A stretch of DNA of 64,000 bases from positions 1 to 64,000 of IMG/VR virus record IMGVR_UViG_3300019487_000001, one strand, 5' to 3'. The translations under genes and the position numbers were made by a program. This document shows, one piece after another, positions 2,857 to 60,790 of this stretch. Every line of letters begins with the position of its first letter. The stretch's first letter is position 1. The stretch comes from a virus. The notes below the pieces were generated by a model. That model was given only the letters and a program-made list of their open reading frames with translations, made no database searches and was not told where the DNA came from.

Positions 2857-4662
2857 TTAATGAGACGACTTTTTATTTGTCTCTTTTGGTTTCAACTCAA
2901 TTGAACCTAAATCTTTTTCAATATCTTCAAGACTCATTGTAGCTCCTGAGTCTGTCTTGATAATTTGCTTACCCAAACCGGCTTCAGCTGCCGCTGAGCT
3001 AGAAGCATATACGAACCTACCTCGTGCAGAAGTTCTGAGCTCCTGAACTTTTTCACCCATAACCTTATAGAGAGGCTTTGTTTCCGCGATAGCATTCTCT
3101 AAATGCTGCTGTGTAAGTTCTTTCGCTCCTCCTGCAAAGGCTGCCACAAGCGCTGCCTTAACACACTTCTCGATCTCTGCACCGGTATAATACTGAGACC
3201 TCAGAGTTAATTTGTCAAGATCATATTTCTTAGGATCACGACCAGGGTGACCTTCTCTAGGCTTAGAGATATGGATTCTCCATATTTCATGTCGTTCCCC
3301 TTCTGTGGGAATATCCATGAAGAATGTTTCCGAGAACCTACGAATAAACTCCGGAGGTAACAACGAGAAATCATTAGCTGTTGCAATAACCGGAACTTCG
3401 GTTTGCTTTTCCTGCATCCAGGTTAAAAGGGTACCAAAGACTCTGGCCAAGGTACCTGAGTCTGATTGGTGGGAAGACTTAACGCCACCCACGGCTTTCT
3501 CGACTTCATCAATCCAGAGGATTGCAGGGCTCATGGCTTCGGCTGACTGGATGGCTCGTCTCATACCTTCTTCGGATCCACCAACGAGGCCAGTCATGAC
3601 CTTACCAATGTCCAGACGCAGAAGCGGCAACTTCCAGAGGCTAGCTAGCGCCTTAGCAAAAAGCGATTTACCGACACCTGGAACACCGGTAAGCAGGAAG
3701 CCAGTTGGAGCTTCAACACCAAACTTCTTAGCTTCATCACTGAACGCCTTAGAATATCTAAGGAAATAATCCTTGGCGATATCCATACCGCCAATGTCTT
3801 CGAGTTTGACACCAGCCTGAACACACTCGAGGATCGCAGTCTTTTTAACGAGCTGTTCTTTCTCTTTACGAATGTAGTCAGGGAGCACCCGGGTATTACG
3901 TATGAATGATGTTGCCAAGGCGTTATTCAGTTCCGGTACGGTCAACCCTTGAGCTGCGCGAGTGATCTCGTAGATCTCGTCTTCAGTGTAAAGAGTGTTG
4001 ATCTTAGAGAACGCTGAATCCTTGCCTTCTTCTTCAATCTTTTCTCGGATACTACAGGCAATGATCTCTGTTTGTTCCAACGTGATCTGTCTTAGGGTCG
4101 CACGATCCGGAAGATTATAATGTACGAGAACGATATCTTTTTCCAGTTCTTCCGGTAGCCCAGCGCCCTTGGCACCAATCGTTGGTGCAGTAATGATGAT
4201 GGTCTTAAGTGAGTTACAAAGATCATCGATCATATCCCTAATCTGTCGGACAACGGGCGGGACAAAGAGCTGATGGAAGTCCTGCAGAATGAAGGCAACA
4301 CCATTCTGATTCTTTTCTTTAGCAGCACGGACCGCCTTAATAGCGTTCAGAGCCTTGTCGGGTCTCGCGGTACCAGCCATCGGGTCATCCCCGCTATCAG
4401 GAACGCGGACTGCCTTCTTGCGGTTCTCGAAGGTCATAAGACCGAGGTTACTGGTCCAGCAAAAGACACCATAGGAAACACCTGGGTCGTCGGCTACACT
4501 AGACTTAAACTCGTTAATGAACCGGGTCTCTTCGTGGGTTACCACGTAAATGATAGGAGTACGGGCTTTAACCAGTGCTCGAATTTCTTCCATCGATTTA
4601 GACATATGCGCGGTTGGTAATACTGGAGCTGTCTGTTCTTTAACCTCGGACTTGCTGGCCAT
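2857..4662 (-). CDS. AAA+ ATPase (Ycf46-like architecture)
   Basis: Walker A GVPGVGKS, Walker B ILWIDEVEK, C-terminal AAA lid. Long N-terminal domain, 601 aa. Confidence 0.85.
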   Translation of the reverse strand: MASKSEVKEQTAPVLPTAHMSKSMEEIRALVKARTPIIYVVTHEETRFINEFKSSVADDPGVSYGVFCWTSNLGLMTFENRKKAVRVPDSGDDPMAGTARPDKALNAIKAVRAAKEKNQNGVAFILQDFHQLFVPPVVRQIRDMIDDLCNSLKTIIITAPTIGAKGAGLPEELEKDIVLVHYNLPDRATLRQITLEQTEIIACSIREKIEEEGKDSAFSKINTLYTEDEIYEITRAAQGLTVPELNNALATSFIRNTRVLPDYIRKEKEQLVKKTAILECVQAGVKLEDIGGMDIAKDYFLRYSKAFSDEAKKFGVEAPTGFLLTGVPGVGKSLFAKALASLWKLPLLRLDIGKVMTGLVGGSEEGMRRAIQSAEAMSPAILWIDEVEKAVGGVKSSHQSDSGTLARVFGTLLTWMQEKQTEVPVIATANDFSLLPPEFIRRFSETFFMDIPTEGERHEIWRIHISKPREGHPGRDPKKYDLDKLTLRSQYYTGAEIEKCVKAALVAAFAGGAKELTQQHLENAIAETKPLYKVMGEKVQELRTSARGRFVYASSSAAAEAGLGKQIIKTDSGATMSLEDIEKDLGSIELKPKETNKKSSH

Positions 4663-6364: not shown

Positions 6365-6844
6365 TTACCAACCTAGAAGTTTACTGATAGATGCTTCAAA
6401 AAGATTATTGATAACCCGAGTCTCAGCGAGATCTGTGAAGAGCGAGACATGCGTATTTTTCTCAGGCTCGGATTGGTTCTTGATTGTGAAAGACCAGAGG
6501 TACGATTTACCATCCTGGCCCAATGCAAGCTTAAGTGAAGAGTAGTGTTCCTTGGCTCTCTCCGTCCCCGCGAACTTCGCGTGAAGCAAATTGGCTTCGC
6601 CGTCTTTGAATCCCTGGAGGAGCTTCCCAATGTCGTTCACATTGAGAGCGATCGTAGCCTTCTTGCTCCAGTCATACTGACGCGCACCTGTAGCATTGGC
6701 TGCCTCGATAAAGATCTTTCCCTCTTCCATCACCGGGATCTTACCTTCGGCGACTTCACGAGGAAGCTGAGCGGGCTTAAGGTTAAACTGCATTGCACCT
6801 TTACCCTTATAGACTGCGTATGTTGCTGGACGAAACTTATTCAT
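6365..6844 (-). CDS. Whirly-family single-stranded DNA-binding protein
   Basis: Aligns by eye along its length with plant Whirly/p24. VYKGKGAMQFNLKP matches IYKGKAALTVEPR. ARQYDWSKKATIALNVNDIGKLL matches VRQYDWSRKQVFSLSVTEIGSII. C-terminal ..LLGW is as in Whirly. Confidence 0.8.
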   Translation of the reverse strand: MNKFRPATYAVYKGKGAMQFNLKPAQLPREVAEGKIPVMEEGKIFIEAANATGARQYDWSKKATIALNVNDIGKLLQGFKDGEANLLHAKFAGTERAKEHYSSLKLALGQDGKSYLWSFTIKNQSEPEKNTHVSLFTDLAETRVINNLFEASISKLLGW

Positions 6845-8816: not shown

Positions 8817-9332
8817 TTACCTTTGATTGGGGTTTTGTTTTGGCAAATTTTGTTTGACATTATTCGGAAACACATCTTTCAGTGTGGACTTATTATGTCC
8901 GCCAAACGGTCTATTGCCTTTGTAGTTCGGAGAGGGCTTACGATCTTTCCATTTAGGCTTAGGATAATAGGTGGGCTTACGATCTTCAGGAGCTACGTAT
9001 TCGTACCGTTGTCTTTGGACAACTGGTTTAACTTCTACTTGAATCTTATCGAGACCAAGCTTCTTAGCACAGAGCGGGCAGACTCGAATCTCTTTGGCAA
9101 TCTCCCAACCATTAGATATCTTCTTCATCATCTTAGCATTCTTGCCTCTGTTCTTAACTTCCTTCTTAATGATCTTGGTTTTGCCACCGCCGATGAAGAT
9201 CTTCTTGGTTATAATACGAGGCCGCTTGACCATATTCTCATAGGTCTTCTCCCTCTTCTCAGCGATCATAGTGATCATAGAGGTACCGGGCTTCGTAATA
9301 TATTTACAACCTACATTCTGGCACTGGTACAT
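8817..9332 (-). CDS. highly basic zinc-ribbon-like protein
   Basis: CQNVGC near the N-terminus and CPLC further on. Lys/Arg-rich throughout. The antisense plus-strand ORF 8823..9338 is judged spurious. Confidence 0.5.
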   Translation of the reverse strand: MYQCQNVGCKYITKPGTSMITMIAEKREKTYENMVKRPRIITKKIFIGGGKTKIIKKEVKNRGKNAKMMKKISNGWEIAKEIRVCPLCAKKLGLDKIQVEVKPVVQRQRYEYVAPEDRKPTYYPKPKWKDRKPSPNYKGNRPFGGHNKSTLKDVFPNNVKQNLPKQNPNQR

Positions 9333-9334
9333 GT

Positions 9335-9982
9335 TTAGAACTCGTCATCCTCCGAATCTTCTGAATCAATAGGAGGCTCAGGATGCTCCTCCTCATCTTC
9401 GTCTACGCTAACTTGCTTAGGACTTCTGACACTGACAAGATAGTCTACCAGTTCTTGTGCTGTAAATAAAGGGTCAAGTTCAATACCAGCTGCTTTTAAT
9501 GCTTCGGCTGACTGGCCCTTGCTACCATCAACGATGGCCAAGATTTTGACAATCTTAAAGTTATTACGGCGTTGCTCATTGATGAAGTTATTCTCTTGGT
9601 TACCCAGGCCAGTGAAAATGGTTGTCAGCATGGCCGCTTCGGTACCCTCGGCGCTGCCCTCACTAAAGTGAGGACACTCAAGCTCGGTACCCATCGCATG
9701 AGCAACGGTCAATAGAGAAGAAGCGAGCCAAGTGGAAGTCGGATTCTCCGGCACATCTAGCACCGTGGATGGATAGCACCTGACAGATTTTTGAAGCTTC
9801 TTATGCAAGAGCAAAGAGGTGTACCACAGGACTTCCTGTTGGTCAATGGCTTGGTCCAGAAGCTCCGGGTCTAGTTCATAGGTATCTGGAGCGTCCACCT
9901 TGGCACGAAAGATCTCTCGAGCTAGGAGGGACCTAAGAAAATTAGATAAGATTACTGCTTCATCTTTAATAACTTCGGTCAT
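9335..9982 (-). CDS. hypothetical protein with acidic C-terminal tail
   Basis: 215-aa ORF ending DSEDSEDDEF, overlapping the upstream DHH gene stop by 4 nt. Confidence 0.6.
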   Translation of the reverse strand: MTEVIKDEAVILSNFLRSLLAREIFRAKVDAPDTYELDPELLDQAIDQQEVLWYTSLLLHKKLQKSVRCYPSTVLDVPENPTSTWLASSLLTVAHAMGTELECPHFSEGSAEGTEAAMLTTIFTGLGNQENNFINEQRRNNFKIVKILAIVDGSKGQSAEALKAAGIELDPLFTAQELVDYLVSVRSPKQVSVDEDEEEHPEPPIDSEDSEDDEF

Positions 9983-10902
9983 TGGGAATCGCCTTTCTTC
10001 TTGCGGGGTTTCTTGGCTTTCTTTTCCTCTACACCAGTCTGTAGCTGTACGGTAGGCAACTCTACAGGTTTAGATGTGTCCAAAATTTTATTGGTTTGGA
10101 ACCCTGCAGCGTTCTTATGGCCACCACCCGAGCTAGCCAGGCCAGCGGCGACTAACTGTTTAGCAATGATACCTACATGCACCGCGTTAGGGTCTGTATT
10201 AAGAGACCGTAAGGACCAGATGTACTCTCCATCTTTATTGACATAGTACGTGGCACTAAACGGGTGGTGCTTAGCGAAGTGATTACCCATCTCTGACTGA
10301 TAGATCTGGGTATTAACTATAGGTATCTTGTGGGTGCCTATAAAGCCCATTACCGCACTCTTCTCCATGCGGTGGACCTGCTGCTCAACATAGCGCAATA
10401 GGATCTTCCCATCCTCTATTAGGCGCTCACAATCGATTTTATCCCACACATGGAAGTCATTAGCATATGAGTTCAGGGCATAGCCTACCTCCTCACTGAA
10501 GGGTAGTGAGAACTTCCAGAGATCTCTGTCTTGAACGTATAGGAGTAGGGGTGGAGGGGGTTCGGTAGGATGGAAATGGTTCCAGGCCAGGACGGCGCCG
10601 GACTTAGACATGTCAAAGGTGGCAAAATCTAGACCTGCCAGTTCCTTTTGAGCTGTATCATGATGATCTAATACCAGGAGGCTCTTAGCCTTCTTGTGCA
10701 TAGCTATTAGATCTTTGCGTGAATAGGAAAAGTCTACGATGTAGACTTCACGACCGGTAACATCGGGGGGAGGACTGCCGAACTTGACAGGAATGTAGTC
10801 GGCCTGATCGCCTAGCTTACGCCAGGCAGCATAAGCTGCGCCGAATCCATCGGAACACCCAGCATGGTAAAGAATCATTGGCCGTAGTGCTAATTCGGAC
10901 AT
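9979..10902 (-). CDS. DHH/DHHA1 family phosphoesterase
   Basis: DHH motif VLDHHDT, DHHA1 motif GGGHKNAAGF, N-terminal HAGCSDGFGAA. Confidence 0.8.
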   Translation of the reverse strand: MSELALRPMILYHAGCSDGFGAAYAAWRKLGDQADYIPVKFGSPPPDVTGREVYIVDFSYSRKDLIAMHKKAKSLLVLDHHDTAQKELAGLDFATFDMSKSGAVLAWNHFHPTEPPPPLLLYVQDRDLWKFSLPFSEEVGYALNSYANDFHVWDKIDCERLIEDGKILLRYVEQQVHRMEKSAVMGFIGTHKIPIVNTQIYQSEMGNHFAKHHPFSATYYVNKDGEYIWSLRSLNTDPNAVHVGIIAKQLVAAGLASSGGGHKNAAGFQTNKILDTSKPVELPTVQLQTGVEEKKAKKPRKKKGDSQ

Positions 10903-13474: not shown

Positions 13475-14578
13475 TCAAGCCGGTAAAACCAGTTCGTCAA
13501 TGACGGGTGTTCCGTGCCATAGTCTTAGCTGGCCGTGCCATACTGCACCGGGTTCATCTTTTTTTCGCATCAATATATAATTCAACTGACGCCTCGTGCC
13601 AATACTCTCCGTATATAAGGATACTATACTACACCACGTACCGGAGTTAAAGTATTCACCCAGGTCCGGGATCCTCTTATAGCCAGCCTTATGGTTATGC
13701 GCCAGAACTACCAGGCCCTCGCTCTTGGCCTCTATAGCCTCACTCATCTCACGGAGAATCATTTCGGCCCTACCCTCGAGGGTGGACTGTCCTACGCTCT
13801 TTCTGAGAATGGAGTACGTCGGACGAAACTTTGACTTGACCGACATGTTCTTATTGAAGAGAGCGTTGTAGATTACAAACCATGAGATCTTTAAGCCTAG
13901 ACCGGTAAGCCAGATGGGCTTAGAGAAGAGAGTTCGGAAGATCCAGGCAGGTATAGGGCGAACGACATCTAAGTAGGGACAGTCTTGTTTGACGGGATTT
14001 AATAGGTGAGTGATCCAGTAGTATCCCCATGGTGCATCTATAATCTGGGCTGCATTTTCTTCATCCACATGCCAGAGCGATTCACCCTGTTGCCCGTGTT
14101 CTATGTGAAAGTTATCTCCGATGTAGCGAAACTTGTTATACTCAGTATACCGTTCAGGATCTATCTCCAGGAGCTTGGTAAAGAAATACCTATGTGCTTC
14201 TGCGAGAGCGAGACCCATGTCATGGTTGCCCACGATGTAACGGAACTTATGCTTTGGATTCTTAAGCCACTTAGCGATAAACTTGAAAAGTCCCAAGTGG
14301 CCACGATATACTTTGTCGAGCTGGGCAATGACGAAGGCTGCCTCGAGCTTATCAGGGAAGCCACCATCGACTGGGACCTGGAGTAGATCTAGGAAGTCAC
14401 CGTTAGCTACAAACTCAACCTCATCAGCACCAATCTTATCGGCATCATATGTAGTTAGGAGTTCGACGAGTTTGCCGTCTCGAGTGAAGTTCTCTAGAGA
14501 ATTGAGTTGGCCATTCTCGAGATAGACACCCTCCCCGATGTGGGTGTCAGAGATAACAACCTTAAAGCTTTCTCCCAT
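13475..14578 (-). CDS. calcineurin-like metallophosphoesterase
   Basis: Motifs ISDTHIG (DxH), ANGDFLD (GD), GNHDMG (GNHD), and later EHGQ and AHNH histidines. Start overlaps the RT stop by 17 nt. Confidence 0.8.
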   Translation of the reverse strand: MGESFKVVISDTHIGEGVYLENGQLNSLENFTRDGKLVELLTTYDADKIGADEVEFVANGDFLDLLQVPVDGGFPDKLEAAFVIAQLDKVYRGHLGLFKFIAKWLKNPKHKFRYIVGNHDMGLALAEAHRYFFTKLLEIDPERYTEYNKFRYIGDNFHIEHGQQGESLWHVDEENAAQIIDAPWGYYWITHLLNPVKQDCPYLDVVRPIPAWIFRTLFSKPIWLTGLGLKISWFVIYNALFNKNMSVKSKFRPTYSILRKSVGQSTLEGRAEMILREMSEAIEAKSEGLVVLAHNHKAGYKRIPDLGEYFNSGTWCSIVSLYTESIGTRRQLNYILMRKKDEPGAVWHGQLRLWHGTPVIDELVLPA

Positions 14579-15551
14579 AGTCTTTATCCACCAAAGAGTT
14601 ATAGCTCTTAATCAATTTAACATACTGAGCCATATTTATATGTCGAACCCAAGACAACTTCCCTAGGATATGCTCATCGAGATGCTTCCTATCTTTGGCG
14701 AAGTGAAACAGCTGGCCCTCTATGTGCTCACAATACCTCTTAGTGAGAGCGAGAGTCCCATCATTATAGACTATAAACTTATTGGAAATCAGTAAACGAT
14801 TCTCATTACGGACAACAAGCTGAGACTTTTTATAATTAAGTTGCATGTAACCTAGAGTGTTCAGGATCTCTTCGACATGCTCCAGGATGTTTACAAAGAA
14901 TTCTTTGGCATGGATTCTATCTCCACGACCAGAGAAAAGGATGTCATCTGCGTACCGTGTATATGAATTACTTTTGATCGAGCTTAGTGGACCGGTCCTA
15001 TTCATCATTAGGGCTTGGCCTAGGTGTTGCATCGCCGTATCAAAGCTTTTTAATACAAGGTTAGACAAGAGCGGTGAACTGGGGGCGCCTTGCGGTAAGC
15101 CGCCTTCAAAGGTACACAGCTCTGCTATGTCACGCAGGAATTTATTGTGGTATCCAGGCGAACGCGGAATGCGGCGGTCGACTTCTTCTTTCAAGTTAAC
15201 TCTGAGTGCCTCTGTTATCAATAGAGGATGACAGGAGGGAAAGAAGTCCTTGATATCAAGGGCTACAACAAAGTCCGCTTTAGCATGGGCTTGGAGATGA
15301 GATTTAAGACCACGCCCGGGAATATAGGCACAGGCACCAGGTGGATACTCAATATATCTACCATTTAGATTGGTAACTATGAACTCTTGAAGTTCACGTA
15401 GAGCTCCCAGCGGTTCACAGATCATGCGCTTCTTGCCATTGGGCTTGGGAATATATCGTATATGATACATCCCACGCTTGTTTGCTATGATATCGGGTAT
15501 GGCAAAGCCCATCGAGTTAGAAAACTCGTAAAACTTAGAGGCATAAAGCAT
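14562..15551 (-). CDS. reverse transcriptase, stand-alone retron/Abi-like
   Basis: RT motifs IPKPNGKKRMICEP, LDIKDFFPS, LPQGAPSSPLLSN, YTRYADDILFSG (YADD codons 14943-14954). 329 aa with no fused domain. Confidence 0.9.
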   Translation of the reverse strand: MLYASKFYEFSNSMGFAIPDIIANKRGMYHIRYIPKPNGKKRMICEPLGALRELQEFIVTNLNGRYIEYPPGACAYIPGRGLKSHLQAHAKADFVVALDIKDFFPSCHPLLITEALRVNLKEEVDRRIPRSPGYHNKFLRDIAELCTFEGGLPQGAPSSPLLSNLVLKSFDTAMQHLGQALMMNRTGPLSSIKSNSYTRYADDILFSGRGDRIHAKEFFVNILEHVEEILNTLGYMQLNYKKSQLVVRNENRLLISNKFIVYNDGTLALTKRYCEHIEGQLFHFAKDRKHLDEHILGKLSWVRHINMAQYVKLIKSYNSLVDKDYGRKL

Positions 15552-17196: not shown

Positions 17197-17282
17197 CGGT
17201 TCCTCCTAAATAACTACACGACGGTCACACATCGGTGACCACCGGTAGGAAACTTATTCAGTTGTAAAACCGATAATTTCGT

Positions 17283-17358
17283 CCTGGCAGGGATTCGAAC
17301 CCCACTCCTCCCTCAAGCACATAGCTCAGAAGCTATGCCTCTTTGGGGACTGCACCAT
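17283..17358 (-). ncRNA. tRNA-like element (T-arm plus one hairpin), not a canonical tRNA
   Basis: Minus strand has UGGGG-UUCGAAU-CCCUG, whose G.U pairs would be C.A mismatches on the plus strand. A 6-bp hairpin catagc/gctatg lies upstream. No acceptor stem can be closed, and the hairpin loop is 6 nt. Confidence 0.25.
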
Positions 17359-17466
17359 ACAACACAGGTCGTTGTTATATTGCTCTATCCAAGGCAGTAT
17401 AACCTAAAACAATTCCAAATACAAGCTTATCTAGTAGCTTTGCCACAATGCAGTACCAAGCGCTTC

Positions 17467-17529
17467 CTAGTAGTTCCAGGTCGGTTTCGGTTTGGGCTTC
17501 GGCTTGGTCTTCTTTTTCTTCTTGGCCAT
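17467..17529 (-). CDS. 20-aa highly basic peptide MAKKKKKTKPKPKPKPTWNY
   Basis: AGGAGG lies 5 nt upstream of the ATG. The peptide sits between the UDG gene and the tRNA-like element. Confidence 0.3.
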   Translation of the reverse strand: MAKKKKKTKPKPKPKPTWNY

Positions 17530-30408: not shown

Positions 30409-31764
30409 TTAAGTCTTTTTATACCGTCCTCGTATAAACCCTCTAAAATAATCTATTTGATTGTTCTTAGGATCTTCAAGAGCGAGCCCTAGGCAATCAC
30501 TAAGAATCTTCTTAAATTTAGGACCAGGCTTAAATCCCATCTTAACAAGATCTTCGCCGGAGATAGCAAGATCCTTGACTGTCATTGGCACCGAAGTTTT
30601 CTCAAATTGAATGAGTTTACGAAGCAAGCACTTCATTGGCCATGTTATGGCAGGCTTACCTTCTTTAGCTCGGTTGCCTTTGCGATCAGCCATGCGCAGC
30701 CTTAACAAGTCTCTAGTGTGGGGTGCCACAGTTACGGCCCATCGTTTTATAGTTGAGTCTTTCGTGTCTTCGGCAAAGCGCCACATGTGGTGGCGAACTA
30801 GCAAGACAACCTGAGCAGTCCAATCACCGGGAAACTTTAACCGAGTCATAATAGCGTCGGCCTTGTTAGCTCCGACGACTTCGTGTTTGTGAAAACTCGC
30901 GTAACCCCTGACAACTCTTTTAGTGTCAGGTTTGCCTATATCGTGAAAAAGCGCAGCAAACCGGAGGATTGTTCTTTTCGGTGAAACCGCGTCAACAACT
31001 TTAAGTATGTGTGTGTAAACATCGTCTTTGTGGTACTTGTTTTGCTCAACGCCGTGACACTGCTGGAGTTCAGGGATGATGAACGGCAAAAGACCCGTGT
31101 TACGCATGGCGTTAAAAGCTTTGGACGGGAGAGGATACTTCATGGCCTTAACGAGCTCGCCCTGGATCCTCTCGGCAGAGAGCCCATCAATATCCCAGGC
31201 ATTCTCTTTGATAGCTCTAAAGAGATCCTGGGAGATAATCATCCCGGTGCCATAGGCAGCAAACCTACAGGCTCTCAGCATACGGAGCCGGTCTTCTCTT
31301 AAACGCTCTTCTGGATCGCCTACAGCCCTCAGGCTGCGTTGCTTGAGATCAGCTTGACCTCCGAACGGGTCTATGAGGTTTCCGTTCAAATCTAGGGCCA
31401 TAGCGTTAATAGTGAAGTCACGCCTGGCTAGGTCGGTTTCAAGATCGCTAGTGAATTCCACCTCTGCGTGACGCCCGTCACAACTAACATCCTTACGGAA
31501 CGTAGTGATTTGACACGAGAATTTGGACGGCTCATGGAAAACAGAGATGGTTCCATGCTTAATGCCTAGAGGAATTACCTTATAGGTACCCTCAAACAAT
31601 GTGGTGAGAAGCTCCGGTGTCGCTGGAGTAGAGAGGTCCCAATCCATGGGTACCTGCCCCGCGACCAAGTCGCGGACTGCGCCTCCTACGATGTAGGATT
31701 TCACACCACGCTTATCAAGAAAGACCATGAGGTCTTTCAATACAGTCGGAACTTTTTCGAGCAT
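30409..31764 (-). CDS. cca: CCA-adding tRNA nucleotidyltransferase with HD domain
   Basis: GGAVRDLVAG, DWDLST, ARRDFTINAMA, HD motif LFHDIGKP. Confidence 0.9.
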   Translation of the reverse strand: MLEKVPTVLKDLMVFLDKRGVKSYIVGGAVRDLVAGQVPMDWDLSTPATPELLTTLFEGTYKVIPLGIKHGTISVFHEPSKFSCQITTFRKDVSCDGRHAEVEFTSDLETDLARRDFTINAMALDLNGNLIDPFGGQADLKQRSLRAVGDPEERLREDRLRMLRACRFAAYGTGMIISQDLFRAIKENAWDIDGLSAERIQGELVKAMKYPLPSKAFNAMRNTGLLPFIIPELQQCHGVEQNKYHKDDVYTHILKVVDAVSPKRTILRFAALFHDIGKPDTKRVVRGYASFHKHEVVGANKADAIMTRLKFPGDWTAQVVLLVRHHMWRFAEDTKDSTIKRWAVTVAPHTRDLLRLRMADRKGNRAKEGKPAITWPMKCLLRKLIQFEKTSVPMTVKDLAISGEDLVKMGFKPGPKFKKILSDCLGLALEDPKNNQIDYFRGFIRGRYKKT

Positions 31765-54088: not shown

Positions 54089-54133
54089 GTTACGATCCTC
54101 CTATGATTATTAGTTGTCCCTAATGTTAAAACA

Positions 54134-54165
54134 GGGACCCGGTAGCATGGCGCTACCAGGCCCCC
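54134..54165 (-). terminator. probable intrinsic terminator (imperfect twin of 55504..55537)
   Basis: gggacccggtagc-atggc-gctaccaggcccc. The minus strand continues tgttttaac. Confidence 0.45.
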
Positions 54166-54177
54166 GACAGGAGGCCG

Positions 54178-55173
54178 TTACTTGGCTTGCGCCTTGACTC
54201 GGCGCCAAGCGTCCCAAACTCGGTCTTTATCCGAAGGTTTGAGAGACTGCGTGGCTTGATATAAATCCTTGCCATTAATTTTATTGGCACGAATCTTTTC
54301 AATCAAGCCATACGCAGGATCCTGGCTCTTGCGTAGCGAAGCGAAGCCTTTCCAGGTCGCCCAGATGATATTCTGTTCATCTTTGGTGAAGGGCGACACT
54401 GAGCCCTTAGGATTCACCTTGAGGTGAATCATTTTGCCAAGGAAGTGGATTTGTTTATCAGAGCGAATCTGATTGAGCAAATCCAAGCAGGCTTGCGAGT
54501 ATACTCGCTTCTTGGCATTGGCTATTTTGTTATCTAGATACTTAGCCTGAGACGGTGGCTCACGCCAGTTGTCACGGTTGGTATCCACGTCGGGCAACCA
54601 GGCGTCAGAGCCACGCTCGTTGCTGTGGACTTCGGCAAAAGATTCTATTACGGGATGCTCCCCGGAATAGAACTCTTGGCCACAGAAGTCAACGATCTGG
54701 TCGTGGACCAGGCCACGAGCGACGTTGCGTACGGCTCTACGAGGACCGATAGTAACGTTGATTTTACGGGCTGTTTCCAAGGCCTCGGCTTCATCGAGTT
54801 TGCCTTGTGCCTGTAAGGCAGCCACGCCCTCAGGCGTGGCGTTCATGGTGAACTTGAACGTTCTCGCATCAGTTTCTTCAGCGAGTTCGTAGAACGACTC
54901 GAGTTCACCGAGCATGTCTTCCTGGCTAAGGCCAGGCTGCTCAAGCAGGCTATTAAACCAGCGGTTAGCAAGTTTAGTAGCACGCTCCATGGTCCACTGT
55001 TTAGGTTCTCTGCGGTTGACACGACTCATAGTCTTGTCAACGCTATCACAGGCTTCGTTATCAGCCTGTGCATCAGAGTCCGTATGGACGATGAAGCCAT
55101 GTCCATCGGCAGCGAAGTTGCCGTATAGAAATGATTCTTCTTGATCAGCGTTTTGGTTTTGGATAGTTTCCAT
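54178..55173 (-). CDS. hypothetical protein
   Basis: Start taken at METIQNQ (ATG 55173), 8 nt after AGGAGG. The track ORF extends to 55251. Confidence 0.6.
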   Translation of the reverse strand: METIQNQNADQEESFLYGNFAADGHGFIVHTDSDAQADNEACDSVDKTMSRVNRREPKQWTMERATKLANRWFNSLLEQPGLSQEDMLGELESFYELAEETDARTFKFTMNATPEGVAALQAQGKLDEAEALETARKINVTIGPRRAVRNVARGLVHDQIVDFCGQEFYSGEHPVIESFAEVHSNERGSDAWLPDVDTNRDNWREPPSQAKYLDNKIANAKKRVYSQACLDLLNQIRSDKQIHFLGKMIHLKVNPKGSVSPFTKDEQNIIWATWKGFASLRKSQDPAYGLIEKIRANKINGKDLYQATQSLKPSDKDRVWDAWRRVKAQAK

Positions 55174-55290
55174 GATACTAGACCTCCTGTTAAAAGTTAA
55201 ATGTTTCGATTTCATGTTTGCATACCCCTCACCGAAGTGTGGGGGTTGCAAACTGAAATCCTTTCTGAACCACTAAACACAGGAGGGCTT

Positions 55291-55401
55291 ATGGAAACTA
55301 CCATAATCCTACCTATCGTATTTAGTTGCCTCATTGCTTTCGGCAACGGGGTCTTAATTCTTCCTCTTTGCGAGCGAGCGGAAGCGAGCGAGCTTGTATA
55401 A
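55291..55401 (+). CDS. 36-aa hydrophobic peptide on the opposite strand
   Basis: AGGAGG lies 4 nt before the ATG. Reads METTIILPIVFSCLIAFGNGVLILPLCERAEASELV, with one TM segment. Sits in an intergenic gap between minus-strand units. Confidence 0.3.
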   Translation: METTIILPIVFSCLIAFGNGVLILPLCERAEASELV

Positions 55402-55503
55402 TAGACATTATGCACAGCTGAGTGACAAACTCGTTTTGGCACGAGGCGTGCTCACATAAATAATGCTGCCTCACTGCGCTCGGCAGCCTGTGATACGCTA
55501 GAC

Positions 55504-55537
55504 AAAAAAAGGGCCGGTAGCGTGATGCTACCGGCCC
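55504..55537 (-). terminator. intrinsic terminator after ssb
   Basis: 11-bp stem gggccggtagc/gctaccggccc. A 7-nt A-run on the plus strand gives a U-run on the minus strand. Confidence 0.75.
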
Positions 55538-55562
55538 CGACTATATACTCTCTTAGAGTGAA

Positions 55563-55982
55563 CTACTCTTGAGAGGCAGCCAAGGATTTAGCCTTCAGCG
55601 TGAAACGCGCTTCCGGATCCTTAGCAAGGCTCTGAATCTCACGAGCCACGATCTCAGTCCGGTACCCTTTGGTACCTTCCTTCGTATCGAACTCACGAGT
55701 CTTCAGTTTGCCGATCACGCGGATGAACGCGCCCTTGGCGAGTTTCTCCGTGATCTGTTCGGCAAGGCCTTCCCAAGCGGTAATGCGGTGCCACTCGGGT
55801 TCGGTCTCAACTTCCTTGCCTTCGACTGTGAAACGCTCACGCGTACACAGGCTGAAGGTAGCAAGTTTCTTACCCGATTCAGGGAATTCCCTGACTTCGG
55901 GCGCACCGCCGATATTACCCACTAACTCAACATGATTGTTGGTGCGGGCATAGTGCGCTTGTTTGTCTGTCTGTTCACTCAT
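55563..55982 (-). CDS. ssb: OB-fold single-stranded DNA-binding protein
   Basis: NHVELVGNIGGAPEVR, WHRITAWEGLAE, IRVIGKLKTREF. It lacks the usual acidic DDDIPF tip. Confidence 0.85.
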   Translation of the reverse strand: MSEQTDKQAHYARTNNHVELVGNIGGAPEVREFPESGKKLATFSLCTRERFTVEGKEVETEPEWHRITAWEGLAEQITEKLAKGAFIRVIGKLKTREFDTKEGTKGYRTEIVAREIQSLAKDPEARFTLKAKSLAASQE

Positions 55983-56184
55983 TGTTTTTCTCCTTATTGT
56001 TAGAGTGGAACACTTTCGAAACTTTCATAAAAACTGAAGTTTTGAAAGTGTGAAGCCTGTTGCCCATGGTGTCGGGCGAACCAGCACACGCTTTCTCTTT
56101 CTTCATATCCTTACGAAGTCTCTTCAATTGAACCAGACTCTCTTCGAGCCTGGCAATCAAAGTATTAAGTTCTTCTGTATTCAT
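55975..56184 (-). CDS. hypothetical protein
   Basis: 69-aa ORF. Confidence 0.45.
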   Translation of the reverse strand: MNTEELNTLIARLEESLVQLKRLRKDMKKEKACAGSPDTMGNRLHTFKTSVFMKVSKVFHSNNKEKNNE

Positions 56185-56208
56185 GTATTACTCCTACACG
56201 TAGTGCGA

Positions 56209-56646
56209 TTAGCACGCAGTGGGCCTCACTGCATTCATCGCATGAATTGCGTGATAGCCTTTTGTTCTAGAAGTGACATGAACATGGCACTGATAGAACT
56301 CTGCCAATTCTTCGGCTTTAAGCCAAGCATCGCCCATTTGTAGGTTTGATACCTCAAACATCCTCTCGACCGTTGGACTAAAAGGATCAACGGCTCGAGT
56401 GTAACTTACTGGGAGATAGCGTACGGCTTTCACCGAGAACGTATCTGTTTGTGCATCATGATCCATGATGATCTGCACATTGTTGTCTTTGGCATAAGCG
56501 CGAGCTTTATTGGTGAGGTCCAAGGACCGAACCAATCCAAAGCGAGCGCCGTACTCTCTCAAGAGTACGAAGGTCTTACGACCAAAGATCATAAGCAAGG
56601 CTATGATCGAGCCAACGGTAACGTTGAGTATAAGTAATTCTTCCAT
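56209..56646 (-). CDS. hypothetical protein with N-terminal TM segment
   Basis: 145-aa ORF. Confidence 0.5.
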   Translation of the reverse strand: MEELLILNVTVGSIIALLMIFGRKTFVLLREYGARFGLVRSLDLTNKARAYAKDNNVQIIMDHDAQTDTFSVKAVRYLPVSYTRAVDPFSPTVERMFEVSNLQMGDAWLKAEELAEFYQCHVHVTSRTKGYHAIHAMNAVRPTAC

Positions 56647-56674: not shown

Positions 56675-56866
56675 TTAGATCTTGGGCATGATCAACTTGG
56701 CGAGTTTCACTCGACCGTTGAGAATGCCTGTTTGAATCTTGGTCTTACCAGTTGCCAGGGCTGGACGCGATACGTTGTATAGCGATACAGCCTTAGTCTT
56801 GGTGGCCTGCATAGCAGACACCAATGACGGGACAACACGATTCTTGATCTGATTGAATTTATCCAT
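56675..56866 (-). CDS. hypothetical protein
   Basis: 63-aa ORF. Confidence 0.45.
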   Translation of the reverse strand: MDKFNQIKNRVVPSLVSAMQATKTKAVSLYNVSRPALATGKTKIQTGILNGRVKLAKLIMPKI

Positions 56867-56947
56867 GATACTTCTCCTTTATGAGTTAAGTTAATAACTC
56901 GGGTTTTAGGCGAGCCGCCCGGAACGGGCGGCGAGCCTCTATTGTTA

Positions 56948-57265
56948 CTAGAACAAATCTTCCTCATCTTCATCGAACTCTGCATCATCACCTGTCTCTG
57001 CAACAGGGGCAGGTGACTCGAGTTCAATAGTTGTGAAGAAATCGTCATCGTACTCACTATCTTCGTCTTCATCTTCAGGCTCCTGGTCAGGACCAGGAGG
57101 AAGTTCAGACAGATGTTGTTCGTACTCAGGAATCCGATATAACCCAGTTGTATCGGATTCAACGATCTCTCCTGCTTCGAGCATCATCTTGATGATGTCT
57201 TCGCGGGGATAGTTGGCCGACAGGCCACGTTCTTCAGCGAATGCCTTGATAAGTTCTTCAATCAT
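56948..57265 (-). CDS. strongly acidic hypothetical protein
   Basis: 105-aa ORF ending EFDEDEEDLF. Confidence 0.5.
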   Translation of the reverse strand: MIEELIKAFAEERGLSANYPREDIIKMMLEAGEIVESDTTGLYRIPEYEQHLSELPPGPDQEPEDEDEDSEYDDDFFTTIELESPAPVAETGDDAEFDEDEEDLF

Positions 57266-57417
57266 AATAACCTCCTAGTAAAAGTTAAATAAGTATTATT
57301 GACTTTAAGCCACACCTGGAAGCACGAAGTGCTGAACCTAGTGTAGCAAGTATCCACCCGCAGGGTGGGGAGGCGGAGGAAACTCCTCCGCCTCTGACTT
57401 CTCTTATTGTACCCGAC

Positions 57418-57690
57418 TTATCTGTTGACTCGTCGATTGTGTCTCTCAATCGACTTATGAACAGGAGTGAAGATCTTTAATCTGGTCTGTAGGACCATAT
57501 CCGAGACCTTGTAGTCATTGGCTTTGGCTATGAAGATCACGAGGCGATCTTCTGACAAAGCCATCATATCCGAGATGTGTAGCCCGACGTTCCGGAGGAA
57601 TGACTGGGCTTCTTGGATTTGGTCGGGGTGAATGATCTTATGAGCCACGACCGTGTACTGAGACTTCTTGTTTTGCATTAAATGAACCAT
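57418..57690 (-). CDS. hypothetical protein
   Basis: 90-aa ORF preceded by GGAGGA. Confidence 0.5.
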   Translation of the reverse strand: MVHLMQNKKSQYTVVAHKIIHPDQIQEAQSFLRNVGLHISDMMALSEDRLVIFIAKANDYKVSDMVLQTRLKIFTPVHKSIERHNRRVNR

Positions 57691-57699
57691 GGTTAGGTC

Positions 57700-58880
57700 C
57701 TCCTTGTTTTGCTACTCACGAAATTGTGAGGAGCGTTGTGAATAGATAGATACTAGAAACACAAGCGGTCAAAAGGGATGACAAATATGTGGCAGAGCTT
57801 GCTGGCGAAGGGGTCTTCTTGTATAGCGTAGCGAAACAAGAAGACAGCCGTGATCCGGCGGAGACACAGTATCCGCCGGAGCGAAGGCGGTCCCGAGCCA
57901 ATGCAAGTGAATGCCAAGCGGGGCTGCACCTCCTAGCGAAGCGTTGAGGTGCAGCCGAGAGCGCATATTTGGCATAGAGAGCGAGGAAATTCAAATGCGC
58001 AGCATTTAATTTCTGAGCGAATGACCTTTTGCTTAGCGCGTCACCTTGAGAACAACGCGACGAGCAGGTAGCAAAAGAAGTGAGGACTATCACATGGTCT
58101 AGGTAAACCAGCGACCACGTGAGTCTCAGCCATGGGACTTAAGAAATCCATGAGTCTTGCATTACAGGGATAATGCAAGACCGTAGGGCACGAGAGCCTG
58201 TAGGCGTCCCCGTAAGTCAGGCGCAGCCTAACTGAAGGCCCCGGAACAAAGTGCAGGGGTTGTGAGCGATGAGACAATCGCGAGCAAGGCGAGAGTAGCG
58301 CGTTAGCAGGGAGATCGACCGAGCCGTGTGTCAACCCCAGAGCAACGCAGTGGCGTTGGTTGGGGTCCAACGAATAGAAGGATCTATTCTTGCACACGGC
58401 GAATTGATCGACTTGCTAAAAGCGATACGATGCCCGGGTTTCTCAGTTAGAGCGAACGCAGTGAGCTTGTACCTAGTAGGTAGGGAGTGAGCGACAAATG
58501 GCGAGCGCCGCAAGGCCCGAGCCAGCCCGTTGCCGAAGGCAAAAGGGCCTTTAGTTTGTAGCCGAATGCACGGGTGGAGTGTTGACCAAGCAAGCGCACA
58601 CCATGGCGTAAACGCAGTGGCACGCGCAGCGACTCAACGACGGAACCGGTGCAGAGGCAGTGCTCACGAATAGGCCGCTTAGGACAAGCGACCGCAGTGA
58701 GAGCGCAGCGTAACGCTGCGGGAGTAGGACAGTTTGGTATTAGTGTCTATAAGCGAGGCTGGAAGAGCAAGCGGAGCGGCTCGTTCCAGCCAGCGCAGAC
58801 CCTGAATGTAAGCAAAGAGTCTTAGGGCTTGGGTGAGTAACAAAGCGCAGCTTTGTACGAACCTCAAGCCAGGTCGGCGA
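57700..58880. other. hairpin-dense, GC/purine-skewed non-coding block A
   Basis: Perfect stems at 57813-57845 (10 bp), 57854-57880 (9), 57922-57956 (11), 58154-58181 (11), 58334-58366 (6+5), 58372-58389 (7), 58530-58542, 58704-58720 (7), 58757-58791 (8+4), 58841-58855. The plus strand is T-poor. The only ORFs are Ser/Arg/Ala/Cys-rich artefacts. Confidence 0.6.
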
Positions 58881-58883
58881 GGA

Positions 58884-59153
58884 CTATTGTCCTCTCCTCC
58901 GTTGTAACTCTCTGGCTATAGCCAAACAGATAGCGATGTTATCAGTACACTCAGGTGAGTCACTATGGTCTTTGACCAAGGTACCAAGACCATCAACAAG
59001 GCGTCTAAAGAGCGCCTTGGTAGGGAACAGTGACGCAGCGAGTCCGAATACATCAAGTCCACCCACCACCCCAGCCGGGGCGGGCGTGGACTGGCCATCC
59101 ATATCCGAATCTTCAAACACACTAGTAGATATAACAGTAGTATTCTCTTTCAT
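58884..59153 (-). CDS. hypothetical protein
   Basis: Start taken at MKENTTV (ATG 59153). Ordinary composition, unlike the flanking blocks. Confidence 0.45.
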   Translation of the reverse strand: MKENTTVISTSVFEDSDMDGQSTPAPAGVVGGLDVFGLAASLFPTKALFRRLVDGLGTLVKDHSDSPECTDNIAICLAIARELQRRRGQ

Positions 59154-59305
59154 AAGTATAGTAACTCCATAGTAAGAGAGGATACTCAAGTACCCTCAGG
59201 TTTTAGAACCCAATGTCACCCTATGTGACACTAGGTTTATAAAGAAAATACATTAATTTTGACTGAAATCGAGTCAGAAGAGTACGCATAGCGTACGTTC
59301 ATAAG

Positions 59306-59345
59306 AAAAACCCAATGTAACCATGGTGTTACAAGGGTTTTTCTT
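59306..59345. terminator. bidirectional intrinsic terminator
   Basis: aaaaaccc-aa-tgtaac-catggt-gttaca-a-gggttttt. A-run on one side and T-run on the other. Confidence 0.55.
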
Positions 59346-59349
59346 TAGT

Positions 59350-60100
59350 AGTACTGGTGTCAACGAGACACATACACCTGGTCCGCCAACTTCTAAGCCC
59401 CCGGTTTAGACCCTACACCTACCTCAACGGACAATTCCATTGTCTCTATGTGGGTAGGGGTATAAGAGGGTCTAACAAACCACCCCACGCGGCGGGGCAG
59501 GGTAACGAGGTAGCACAGGGGGGTATGTTTCACATGGCAATCTGTAGATGACATGTGAAAGGTGAAACGAATCGTGGAGAGCGAAGCTCGAACGAGTCGT
59601 GAACCCCAGCGCAGCCGAAGGCAAGCGCAGCATACAGCACCCCCGCAGGGGGTGTATCCCCTAAGTGCGTACATAACCCAGTACGCCGCAGGGACTAGAA
59701 GGGCGAAGGCATGGTTTTGCCTGGCAAAACTAATGCCTGAGCCCAGGTAAGGTACTACGTGGAACGTAGTACATGGAGAGCATGAACGTAGTGAATGCAT
59801 ATAGTGAGCCCAGAGGGCGAACAAGGCGAAGGCATGACTTTTGCGTAAGCAAAAGGCATGACTGAGCCCATGTAGCACTCGTAGGGTGCGGAATGATGAG
59901 GCGAGCGCCGTAGGCGCGAGCCATAGAGATGAGCCCATAGGGCGAATCAATGTATATAGAGCTGCAACAGTACCACTAGAGCGAGGGAACGTAGTGACCG
60001 AGCGTATGCTACGCTATGTACTACATCCCCTCGCTTCAAGTACTATGCAGCGAGCCCCGAAGGGGCGAGCGGGGGTGGTGTTGTGTACTACATACACACC
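59350..60100. other. hairpin-dense non-coding block B
   Basis: Stems at 59531-59557, 59579-59589, 59638-59654 (7 bp), 59667-59686, 59752-59772 (9), 59838-59855 (7, GTAA loop), 59905-59917, 59980-60035 (8+5+6 nested), 60054-60066. TGAGCCCA occurs at 59738, 59805, 59863 and 59930. Confidence 0.6.
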
Positions 60101-60261: not shown

Positions 60262-60760
60262 AACAATCTCCTAAGTAATGCACTACACCTACCTAGATAC
60301 ACCATGTACCTAGGCGGCGGAGTGCTTGTTAAATATCAAATAACTCAAATAAAAAGATGAATATACCTATCCATCTCGTAGTATAGACCCGGGGGCTTAC
60401 ACGGTAAAACCCTAGGTCTTACTACTCAATCTCACCCTCCAGGAGGTTGTACATGTTTTTCCCCCTCCCTAGGCTTTTTCCCGTATCACCAGTTTCTGCC
60501 CGGAACGCGGGGGGAGGTGATAGCTTTTATATTTTTTCCCCCATTTACAACTCCATATGGAACTTTTCTTCTTCTCCCTTATAGCTGAGTAACTCAGTGG
60601 GTTTTTAAGCTCATCAAGGCAGGGGGCGGGCGTACCCCTAATTCTTCCCTATTAACCTGCCAGAGAGGCGTATAGAAAGCCACAGAGGGTTTTAATGGGT
60701 GTGTAGAGGGGGCGCGTAAATATCTCTTCTAGGATTGTTAATAGGGAGGAAATATTTGTC

Positions 60761-60790
60761 TTGACAAGAAATACCATAGTTAACTAAAAT
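60761..60790 (+). promoter_or_regulatory. sigma70-like promoter
   Basis: TTGACA-18 nt-TAAAAT. No ORF for about 550 nt downstream. Confidence 0.4.

Follow-up and report, generated by a model that had tools for sequence, protein, structure and literature searches.

What could be the use, to a phage, of dozens of small hairpins that fold on one and the same strand of its DNA? The question is raised by IMG/VR virus record IMGVR_UViG_3300019487_000001, a 194,631-bp contig of which we analysed positions 1 to 64,000 (the window: this whole stretch, one third of the contig and the scope of our gene and motif scans). At 57.3-60.1 kb lies an island of ~2.8 kb, mostly non-coding, with at least 25 independent short inverted repeats, many of which form on the plus strand a hairpin with a GNA triloop closed by C-G (c-GNA-g). 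A sequence-only reading, made by a model from the letters, had listed ten hairpins here and argued from their polarity that the functional species is either plus-strand RNA, antisense to the genes, or single-stranded plus-strand DNA. All ten are present where it placed them, the hairpin at 56,914-56,932 is indeed closed by G-C, and the one given as 58,841-58,855 is one pair longer (58,840-58,856). Beyond that list, hairpins were found at 57,993-58,007 (GCA), 58,219-58,229 (GCA) and 57,590-57,600 (GGA, within a coding sequence), together with ~16 further short C-GNA-G units with stems of 2-3 bp. We tentatively read the motif grammar, the polarity, the excess over chance and the conservation of one member as the marks of strand-specific DNA hairpins that would act in initiation.

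Excess and polarity were measured against dinucleotide-preserving shuffles (1000 for triloop hairpins, 2000 for flanked CGNAG). Perfect triloop hairpins with a stem of at least 4 bp number 31 in 56.9-60.1 kb, compared with 11.9 ± 3.5 in the shuffles. Those of the c-GNA-g class under the same threshold (stems of 4-7 bp) number 11, against 0.30 ± 0.56 expected, and none of the 1000 shuffles reached 11; hairpins of the reverse-complement class, c-TNC-g, number zero in the same interval. The pentamer CGNAG occurs 38 times on the plus strand of 57.3-60.1 kb (16.0 expected) and CTNCG, its minus-strand form, 5 times (8.0 expected). At least one further flanking pair is present at 27 of the 38 sites, compared with 3.9 expected (0 of 2000 shuffles). 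GCGNAGC heptamers were found 11 times on the plus strand, seven as GCGCAGC and two as GCGAAGC, compared with 1.3 expected, and once on the minus strand. The plus strand is purine-rich at 58-60 kb (GC skew +0.10, AT skew +0.19), and purine skew predicts a bias of ~2:1 (16 vs 8), from which the observed 38:5 departs (binomial p = 0.002 against the skew-adjusted ratio). Because excess and polarity outlast dinucleotide shuffling, a composition artefact is excluded and both are real.

The polarity seen by the sequence-only reading is therefore genuine, the loss of bias under a skew model that it had named as refuting does not occur, and counting c-GNA-g loops against their reverse complements over the window places the bias in the island only. 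The rest of the window has 10 vs 5 short hairpins in 56 kb, no real bias; in counts per kb the signal stays within 57-60.1 kb apart from a weaker shoulder that starts at 54 kb, and the remaining 54 kb are unbiased. The polar zone is nevertheless wider than had been proposed, with GCGA[AG] at 40:4 over 54-60 kb and the same hairpin class also at 55,370-55,393 and 56,498-56,549. No partner cluster on the opposite strand was seen to the right of the island in the window.

What the hairpins share is a plan. GNA triloops in the island (stem of at least 3 bp) are closed by C-G in 13 cases, by T-A in one and by G-C or A-T in none, whereas the same closures (C-G, G-C, A-T, T-A) are even elsewhere in the window. 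There they number 16, 15, 19 and 17. In minimum-free-energy (MFE) structures, 13 of the 19 2x2 internal loops on the plus strand are GA/GA, 12 of these in Y-GA-R context, compared with 0 of 10 on the minus strand and 0-3 of ~10 in two control regions; MFE structures were used for this count because a less strict search for bracketed hairpins let through too many (112 on plus vs 136 on minus). Many hairpins accordingly run outer stem - GA - inner stem - GNA - inner stem - GA - outer stem, and a GA-ACGYAGT-GA unit recurs in four or five copies. Self-BLAST of the island returned two direct paralogous pairs only, all other matches being a hairpin against itself, and alignment of the 38 CGNAG sites gave no conserved position outside CGNAG (no flank column above 0.35 bits). 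The hairpins thus share an architecture, not a sequence, and are no repeat family; their stems are unrelated in sequence and therefore the fold itself is what is selected. The region 54.4-60.2 kb is abnormally foldable on both strands, with z mostly -2 to -7 in 200-nt windows (means of -0.8 and -1.35 elsewhere), and the island folds into one local hairpin after another, strung together with no long-range architecture. Its elements, and the outlying members of the class, are the following.

57,700-58,880, plus strand: array 1, 1.2 kb without a credible open reading frame (ORF), a chain of ~27 local hairpins
57,993-58,007; 58,219-58,229; 58,530-58,542; 58,623-58,631; 58,840-58,856, plus strand: C-GNA-G loops of array 1
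57,981-58,018; 58,260-58,287; 58,461-58,492; 58,500-58,525; 58,831-58,864, plus strand: GA-bracketed hairpins of array 1
59,380-60,100, plus strand: array 2, 0.7 kb, ~19 hairpins, triloops in 14
59,579-59,589 (GCGAAGC); 59,614-59,622; 59,638-59,654; 59,905-59,917; 60,054-60,066, plus strand: C-GNA-G loops of array 2
59,838-59,855, plus strand: tetraloop hairpin of array 2, loop GTAA
59,701-59,744; 59,780-59,798; 59,804-59,822; 59,825-59,868; 59,900-59,922; 59,928-59,948; 60,050-60,070, plus strand: GA-bracketed hairpins of array 2
57,321-57,394, plus strand: three tandem intergenic hairpins, upstream of the minus-strand gene starting at 57,265
57,321-57,333 (AGCAC-GAA-GTGCT); 57,354-57,368 (CCACCC-GCA-GGGTGG); 57,370-57,394 (11-bp hairpin, AAC loop), plus strand: the members of this tandem
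56,908-56,938, plus strand: AGGC-GA-GCCGCCCG-GAA-CGGGCGGC-GA-GCCT, an 8-bp GAA hairpin closed by G-C, with tandem G·A brackets and a 4-bp outer stem
56,498-56,549, plus strand: hairpin of 52 nt, doubly GA-bracketed, within the coding sequence of a 145-aa minus-strand gene
55,370-55,393, plus strand: GCGAGCGAGC-GGAA-GCGAGCGAGC hairpin of G:C pairs and two tandem G·A blocks ('CGAG blocks'), intergenic between ssb and a 357-aa gene
59,303-59,345, no strand assigned: symmetric terminator-like hairpin (AAGAAAAACCC...GGGTTTTTCTT), T-run on both strands, separating the arrays

The bracketed plan can be read directly in 59,900-59,922 (GGC GA GCGCC GTA GGCGC GA GCC), in 59,928-59,948 (GAT GA GCCC ATA GGGC GA ATC) and in 56,498-56,549 (GCGC-GA-GCTTT..TTGGT-GA-GGTCC-AAG-GACC-GA-ACCAA..AAAGC-GA-GCGC). 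Hidden coding sequence in the arrays was considered and rejected: stops occur in all frames, the translations are not protein-like and no small ORF is preceded by a ribosome-binding site (RBS). One ORF of 185 aa runs across array 2 (59,396-59,950, minus strand) and is called as a 181-aa protein in public collections; its sequence is not protein-like, a search against 1.84 billion representatives returned itself only and no homologue, and it is probably a spurious gene call. The hairpin at 59,303-59,345 is, from its sequence, a candidate bidirectional terminator. A motif, AACCCAATGT(C/A)ACC, occurs twice (59,207-59,220; 59,309-59,322), 102 nt apart, upstream of an 89-aa gene; this and the 90-aa gene, both within the island, are orphans.

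Are such hairpins maintained in related phages? The comparison was limited to two short Logan contigs, L001 (2.8 kb) and L002 (1.2 kb), from samples with 74-82% identical phages (SRR8996939, SRR24200879); they cover 54,129-56,346 at 74% and 82% nucleotide identity. The 55,370-55,393 hairpin is present in both, with GGAA as the loop in the window, AGA in L001 and GGA in L002. In the L002 version (GCGAGCGAAC-GGA-GTGAGCGAGC) one G:C pair has become A:T by compensatory change, and the result is a GA-AC-GNA-GT-GA unit as in the arrays. An assembly artefact is ruled out because the hairpin recurs in these two other, independent samples, and this comparative evidence, although thin, shows one member of the class or more to be under selection. 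Over the same 2.2 kb, double substitutions in predicted pairs kept pairing in 37 cases and broke it in 18 (slid controls are ~25% paired), and single substitutions gave G·T on the plus strand 60 times and on the minus strand 63 times. Pairing is thus maintained with neither RNA strand favoured, and the stems behave as Watson-Crick palindromes, not as one-strand RNA helices. Abnormal foldability extends to the coding DNA of ssb and of the 357-aa gene, where z falls as low as -6, and hairpins inside these two early genes seem to be maintained.

Two hairpin-sized segments of the window (55,331-55,362, ~32 nt; ~55,459-55,481, ~23 nt) are absent from L001 and L002. Both carry a GA bracket on the minus strand, e.g. 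GCTGCC-GA-GCGCAGT-GA-GGCAGC, and their presence suggests that such hairpins may be gained and lost quickly. These segments, which lie in the spacer between ssb and the 357-aa gene, with one stem derived partly from pre-existing flank, would suit an explanation without any dedicated function, in which small palindromic insertions (template-switch products or a selfish mini-element) collect in dispensable spacer and strand-biased mutation or repair produces the polarity. The sequence diversity of the hairpins would suit it too, as would the finding that no relative in the databases searched carries the arrays or their two embedded small genes. We regard this explanation as improbable, since it leaves unexplained the C-G-only closure of GNA loops, the Y-GA-R brackets and the 7-fold excess that one strand alone shows over shuffles. 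Insertion as such is not polar, given that the GA brackets of the two extra segments at 55.3-55.5 kb stand on the other strand; in addition, the 55,370 hairpin is kept in the relatives with a compensatory change, and G+C is raised to 52% (50-52% across 54.4-60.2 kb) vs ~44-45% elsewhere in the window.

Further relatives were sought by several routes. Three large protein searches found relatives for the 357-aa gene only (those in L001 and L002), the small flanking proteins had no match in IMG/VR, and exact-protein look-ups of window genes returned no record. Profile-based locus searches of IMG/VR, JGI metagenomes and GTDB genomes gave no related locus, and a conserved 23-mer had no match in IMG/VR. 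A 15-mer, too short for the purpose, gave 120 chance loci in metagenomes, none of them related by BLAST, and a search based on the single-stranded-DNA-binding protein (SSB) returned one unrelated GC-rich phage without any island.

Does the plus strand act as DNA or as RNA? Both d(GCGAAGC) and d(GCGAAAGC) melt at 76.5 °C, compared with 39 °C for the RNA r(GCGAAAGC) (PMC13037366), as the sequence-only reading had implied in calling such mini-hairpins exceptionally stable as DNA. Mini-hairpins of the d(GCGNAGC) type bind SSB poorly and are found at G4 oric, RSF1010 ssiA (CCGAAGG) and the N4 promoter (GCGGAGC) (PMC13037366). Closure by C:G in place of G:C stabilises d(GCA) loops by ~3 kcal/mol (PMC3201870), and the C-G-only closure in the island shows the same asymmetry as this DNA rule. 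DNA hairpins built of G:C and sheared G:A pairs ('CGAG blocks') are likewise documented (PMC10085684). In the plus-strand MFE fold, 24 of the 46 hairpin loops are triloops, 14 of them GNA, and two are GNRA tetraloops; among tetraloop hairpins GNRA accounts for 4 of 49. UNCG tetraloops in 57.3-60.1 kb number one on the plus strand and three on the minus strand (all ambiguous re-readings of plus-strand GNA hairpins or sequence). G·U pairs are the same on both strands (24 and 25; 12 and 12). Because closure is specific for C-G, triloops far outnumber GNRA tetraloops and G·U pairs show no strand asymmetry, the motif grammar favours stable single-stranded-DNA mini-hairpins over typical RNA, and the hairpins would then be active as DNA. 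Folded as DNA, with a parameter set that has no special GNA bonus, 59,690-59,950 reaches -61.4 kcal/mol (z = -8.8) on the plus strand and -51.3 kcal/mol (z = -7.5) on the minus strand.

A serious rival is that the arrays are genes for long structured plus-sense non-coding RNAs (~1.2 and 0.7-1.2 kb) acting as a scaffold, a sponge or a nuclease-resistant RNA, in which GNA triloops and tandem G·A would stabilise RNA helices or serve as protein-binding modules. Tandem G·A in a 5'-C-GA-G-3' context is the most stable tandem mismatch in RNA. The plus strand is purine-rich, like sense strands elsewhere in the window, and folds as RNA 3-7% better than the minus strand (-459.1 vs -429.3 and -290.4 vs -280.1 kcal/mol), with folding z-scores of -4 to -7. 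Terminator-like sites could be used on the plus strand at 59,303-59,345 and 60,584-60,598, and the paralogous pair 59,702-59,749 / 59,825-59,874 differs by a G-C to C-G swap in the inner stem. We nevertheless consider plus-sense RNA genes unlikely. No Rfam family matched them even at E <= 10, no convincing plus-strand promoter lies to the left of either array, and the structure is the local string described above. GNRA and UNCG tetraloops are not enriched and triloops dominate, G·U pairs are no commoner on the plus strand than on the minus strand, and the many units with 2-3 bp stems would be weak as RNA. As to the two species named by the sequence-only reading, loop closure, triloops and G·U counts favour plus-strand DNA; the description of a plus-strand RNA as antisense to the genes does not hold, since most hairpins lie in two ORF-free arrays.

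The hairpins might instead act in the minus-sense mRNA, as intercistronic or untranslated-region (UTR) stem-loops that would slow its decay or direct its processing, with the loop polarity incidental. A model would be the intercistronic C(UUCG)G hairpins of phage T4, reportedly described by Tuerk et al. in 1988. Like T4, the phage here seeds intergenic DNA with extra-stable-loop hairpins of one polarity; in T4, however, these are RNA tetraloops on the mRNA-sense strand, whereas here they are triloops on the antisense (template) strand. Both arrays belong to a leftward transcription unit, for which there is a plausible promoter (60,408-60,380) and a terminator (59,345-59,303), and the stems pair equally well on both strands. 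One clear cUUCGg stands nearby on the mRNA strand (55,230-55,239), in a 5'-UTR hairpin at 55,208-55,260 that is not plus-polar and has 4 compensatory pairs in L001. On the mRNA strand, however, the loops of the island become C-UNC-G triloops and the brackets become U·C/C·U mismatches, neither of them stabilising, yet it is these positions that are conserved and enriched. With the minus strand folding less stably, and with its three T4-type cUNCGg sites in 57.3-60.1 kb all ambiguous, we judge a role in mRNA very unlikely. The 5'-UTR hairpin is followed by a leader, ATTTAACTTTTA..AGGAGG (55,182-55,202 / 57,270-57,290), which is common to two genes and both relatives and which we take to resemble the T7 gene 10 'epsilon' translational enhancer TTAACTTTA.

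Where are strand-specific DNA hairpins of this kind known to work? Promoters of the N4 virion polymerase are template-strand hairpins whose C:G closing pair and loop with 5'G and 3'A are needed for extrusion at physiological supercoiling (PMC4496689), so the sequence-only reading drew its link to N4 correctly. SSB is a cofactor of these promoters and melts the non-template hairpin while the template hairpin stays; the polymerase also reads -11 A/G, -10G, -8G and +1C (PMC4496689). In the N4-like phage LUZ7, early hairpin promoters number nine, and two of these form a tandem with a spacing of 33 nt (PMC9163698). As a positive control, the same scan applied to the first 12 kb of N4 returned exactly three hairpins (90-102, 557-573 and 4,546-4,562), all c-GNA-g on the template strand, with centres 58, 21 and 49 nt upstream of gp1, gp2 and gp15.

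The plus strand of the window is the template strand of the flanking minus-strand genes, as at the N4 early promoters, and carries 11 hairpins with a 3-nt loop and stems of 4-7 bp (N4-type 5-7 bp, LUZ7 at least 4 bp), with the same C:G closing pair and the same 5'G and 3'A in the loop. The N4 position, 20-60 nt upstream of small early genes, is shared by some hairpins, while the ~25 of the ORF-free arrays are not so placed; an ssb gene is nearby. The loop centres at 56,923 (hairpin 56,914-56,932) and 57,327 (57,321-57,333) are 57 and 62 nt upstream of the start codons of two minus-strand genes, which start at 56,866 and 57,265; that of 57,354-57,368 is 96 nt from the latter and 34 nt from its neighbour. 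With the plus strand as template, the polarity argument of the sequence-only reading therefore predicts ordinary minus-sense transcripts and not the antisense product that it had put forward. N4 has three and LUZ7 nine sequence-specific sites (-11 purine, -8G, +1C), whereas here ~27-38 sites lack a conserved flank, their loops are mostly GCA or GTA and most lie in ORF-free arrays. Many hairpins here carry tandem G·A brackets, which we did not find reported for N4 promoters in the literature searched, and the phage is ~195 kb, unrelated to N4 by sequence and without an N4-type polymerase seen in the window.

Under our preferred reading, that of strand-specific DNA hairpins in initiation, selection would act on the plus strand to fold into an unusually stable single-stranded-DNA hairpin with a C-G-closed GNA triloop, often lengthened by tandem sheared G·A pairs in Y-GA-R context. 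The template strand of the leftward block of early-looking genes, which starts at the island, is this same plus strand. Opening of the duplex, whether by negative supercoiling, by transcription or by unwinding, would let the plus-strand arms extrude and persist, and the pyrimidine-looped minus arms would be melted by SSB. The outcome would be a structured, SSB-refractory single-stranded platform on the template strand, where synthesis could start. Two or three hairpins close to genes, which precede start codons by ~60 nt, may be promoters resembling the N4 type with a different specificity, and the two ORF-free arrays may form a polymerase or primase loading zone or an origin-type zone. A broader claim, which we find conceivable though doubtful, is that a phage unrelated to N4 evolved a kilobase one-strand array of extrudable DNA mini-hairpins as a new cis-element that launches early transcription and/or DNA synthesis.

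Several observations weigh against this reading. The bases that N4 polymerase recognises, and that the N4 comparison in the sequence-only reading would call for, are not conserved among the 38 sites (-8G in 18, +1C in 12), and the loop centre is a pyrimidine in 23 (C 16, T 7) and a purine in 15 (A 10, G 5). Some 25 array hairpins have no downstream gene or RBS-preceded small ORF. Pfam and PHROGs scans of the larger window ORFs (the largest 621 aa) and of small ORFs around the island found no hairpin-reading polymerase, primase or HUH (rolling-circle) initiator in the 64 kb, enzymes that the earlier suggestion of N4-type or replicative function had brought into play. Sigma-70-type promoters at 60.4-60.8 kb may make host polymerase enough for early transcription, and a DnaA-box or iteron origin was rejected as no cluster of either kind is present. 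Tandem G·A in C-GA-G context does not tell DNA from RNA, and two or three hairpins whose stems are C/G runs also read, on the mRNA strand, as C(UNCG)G tetraloops. Lastly, the comparison reaches to ~1 kb short of the arrays, where the relatives' contigs end.

The same observations bear on a special case of the preferred reading, in which all hairpins are true N4-family promoters for a virion RNA polymerase (vRNAP) encoded elsewhere in the 195-kb genome; as a special case, its likelihood is not to be added to that of the reading as a whole. Template-strand location, C:G closure, the 5'G/3'A loop and 4-7 bp stems agree with it, as does the recovery of N4's three promoters, in the same geometry, by the same scan. 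The 34-nt spacing of 57,327 and 57,361 matches the tandem LUZ7 promoters 33 nt apart (PMC9163698), and a DUF4326 gene is found both in the N4 early region and beside this locus in a relative. Membership of the N4 promoter family nevertheless fails on a defining feature, the recognition bases -8G and +1C, and purine loop centres are in the minority. For most hairpins there is no gene downstream, the window encodes neither vRNAP nor RNAPII nor a gp2-like protein, and in a collection of 50,697 phage genomes that includes N4-like phages there was neither DNA similarity nor a match to the 357-aa protein. We therefore hold this case to be highly improbable.

Among other known systems, DNA mini-hairpins of the d(GCGNAGC) and 'CGAG block' types (Hirao and co-workers; Novotny, Plavec and Kocman) have exactly the sequence grammar found here: 11 GCGNAGC, C-G closure, sheared G·A within the loop, tandem G·A in Y-GA-R context and self-pairing of GCGAGCGAGC. 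They have been described singly or in pairs at initiation sites, however, and the literature searched yielded no kilobase-scale one-strand array of them in any double-stranded-DNA phage. Primase initiation signals (G4-type oric, RSF1010 ssiA/ssiB) are also strand-specific GNA/GNNA DNA mini-hairpins, which bind SSB poorly and direct priming on their own strand (PMC13037366). The oric and ssi sites, however, measure 40-140 nt and have 1-3 defined hairpins, a cognate primase and single-stranded or unwound replicons; the island counts its hairpins in dozens, the window shows no primase, and the opposite strand has no partner cluster to the right.

Further candidates were tried and rejected. The T5 injection stop signal (iss) is likewise a ~1-kb ORF-free stretch, rich in repeats and palindromes, beside the first-entering genes, but the analogy ends at the level of the motif: T5 9,140-10,149 has no c-GNA-g excess or polarity (1 vs 1; 2-5 pentamers per kb per strand). 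Frpo-type single-stranded-DNA promoters of plasmid leading regions form a long (~300 nt) hairpin whose stem rebuilds the -35/-10 hexamers; in the island there are local hairpins only, with a longest perfect inverted-repeat arm of 11 bp and outer spans of ~20-70 nt, and a plasmid DNA similarity search with the window gave no match. A promoter scan of the arrays was not above chance (8 vs 7.4 expected). None of the 4227 models of Rfam 15 matched at gathering score in the window, the best match over 56.5-61.4 kb having E = 0.28 and 20.9 bits vs a cut-off of 48, and hammerhead-like readings of UGA-stem-GAA units had no Rfam match. A tRNA array was dismissed, no tRNA being found in the window; self-BLAST gave no common consensus for a REP/BIME, MITE-like or CRISPR-type repeat family, and there are no cyanobacterial HIP1 palindromes.

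What kind of phage, and what gene context, carries this island? A DNA similarity search of the window against the 50,697 phage genomes, in near and distant modes, gave no match. Genes in the window include a collagen-like tail fibre, a CCA-adding enzyme (30,409-31,764), an AAA ATPase, a reverse transcriptase, UDG, dUTPase, SRAP, a Whirly-family single-stranded-DNA-binding protein, SSB and a TalC-like transaldolase (38% identity to cyanophage TalC). From 1 to 60,261 nearly all genes are on the minus strand and from 61,306 on they are on the plus strand, so that the island is the upstream end of a leftward gene block of at least 60 kb and adjoins a divergent non-coding region at 60.3-61.3 kb. 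Reading leftward, a 53-aa ORF (60,261-60,100) is followed by array 2 (60,100-59,380), the terminator-like hairpin (59,345-59,303), the 89-aa gene (59,153-58,887), array 1 (58,880-57,700), the 90-aa gene and the three tandem hairpins, and these by a very acidic 105-aa gene, one hairpin, genes of 63, 145 and 69 aa and ssb. Near-consensus sigma-70-type promoters point in both directions in the divergent region at 60.4-60.8 kb, which suggests that host polymerase could start both gene blocks.

60,761-60,790, plus strand: sigma-70-type promoter, TTGACA-18-TAAAAT, 11/12 consensus, rightward
60,408-60,380, minus strand: weaker sigma-70-type promoter, 9/12, leftward
55,563-55,982, minus strand: phage single-stranded-DNA-binding protein gene (ssb), in the leftward block of array 1 and 1.7 kb downstream from it, given for context

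The 105-aa protein (56,948-57,265, minus strand) is without a family match; its C-terminal half is extremely acidic (EDEDEDSEYDDD...DDAEFDEDEEDLF), and it is possibly an early protein of the DNA-mimic type. Many window genes handle single-stranded DNA (the Whirly-family protein, SSB, SRAP, UDG and an RNase T-like exonuclease); the Whirly-family protein (PF08536, E = 2.5e-19; 6,365-6,844, minus strand) is unusual for a phage. The reverse transcriptase of 329 aa (RVT_1, E = 5e-19; 14,562-15,551, minus strand) has a 367-aa neighbour without a family match. A diversity-generating retroelement tied to it was rejected, as there is no template/variable repeat pair of at least 40 nt in 9-22 kb. A tRNA-like T-arm and acceptor mini-helix, GGGGTTCGAATCCC..., lies at 17,281-17,320 (minus strand), inside the intergenic stretch 17,230-17,480, in the same phage that encodes the CCA-adding enzyme; it has no ARAGORN call and a weak Rfam match to the tRNA-like mascRNA model (16 bits, E = 2.8). 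Terminator hairpins at 54,141-54,158 and 55,511-55,538, 3' of consecutive genes, have the common core CCGGTAGC...GCTACC(G/A)GG, and the second is kept in L001.

The feature is statistically robust and unusual. It is best classed with the C-GNA-G DNA hairpin signals, and neither its density nor its phage lineage has a parallel in the literature searched, where hairpin-form DNA promoters are known in N4-like phages only and stable GNA mini-hairpins as isolated sites at a few origins. Should the hairpins act as RNA, they would form a new large structured phage RNA with an unusual vocabulary of triloops and G·A pairs. Should they act as DNA, as we prefer to read them, ~27 template-strand units at the head of the early block of an unrelated 195-kb phage would be new. 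C-G-closed GNA triloops and Y-GA-R brackets, counted per strand, would then provide a sequence signature to look for in metagenomes. Single-strand DNA structure would be far more widely used as a signal than has been thought, and hairpin signals would be a general phage strategy instead of a peculiarity of N4.

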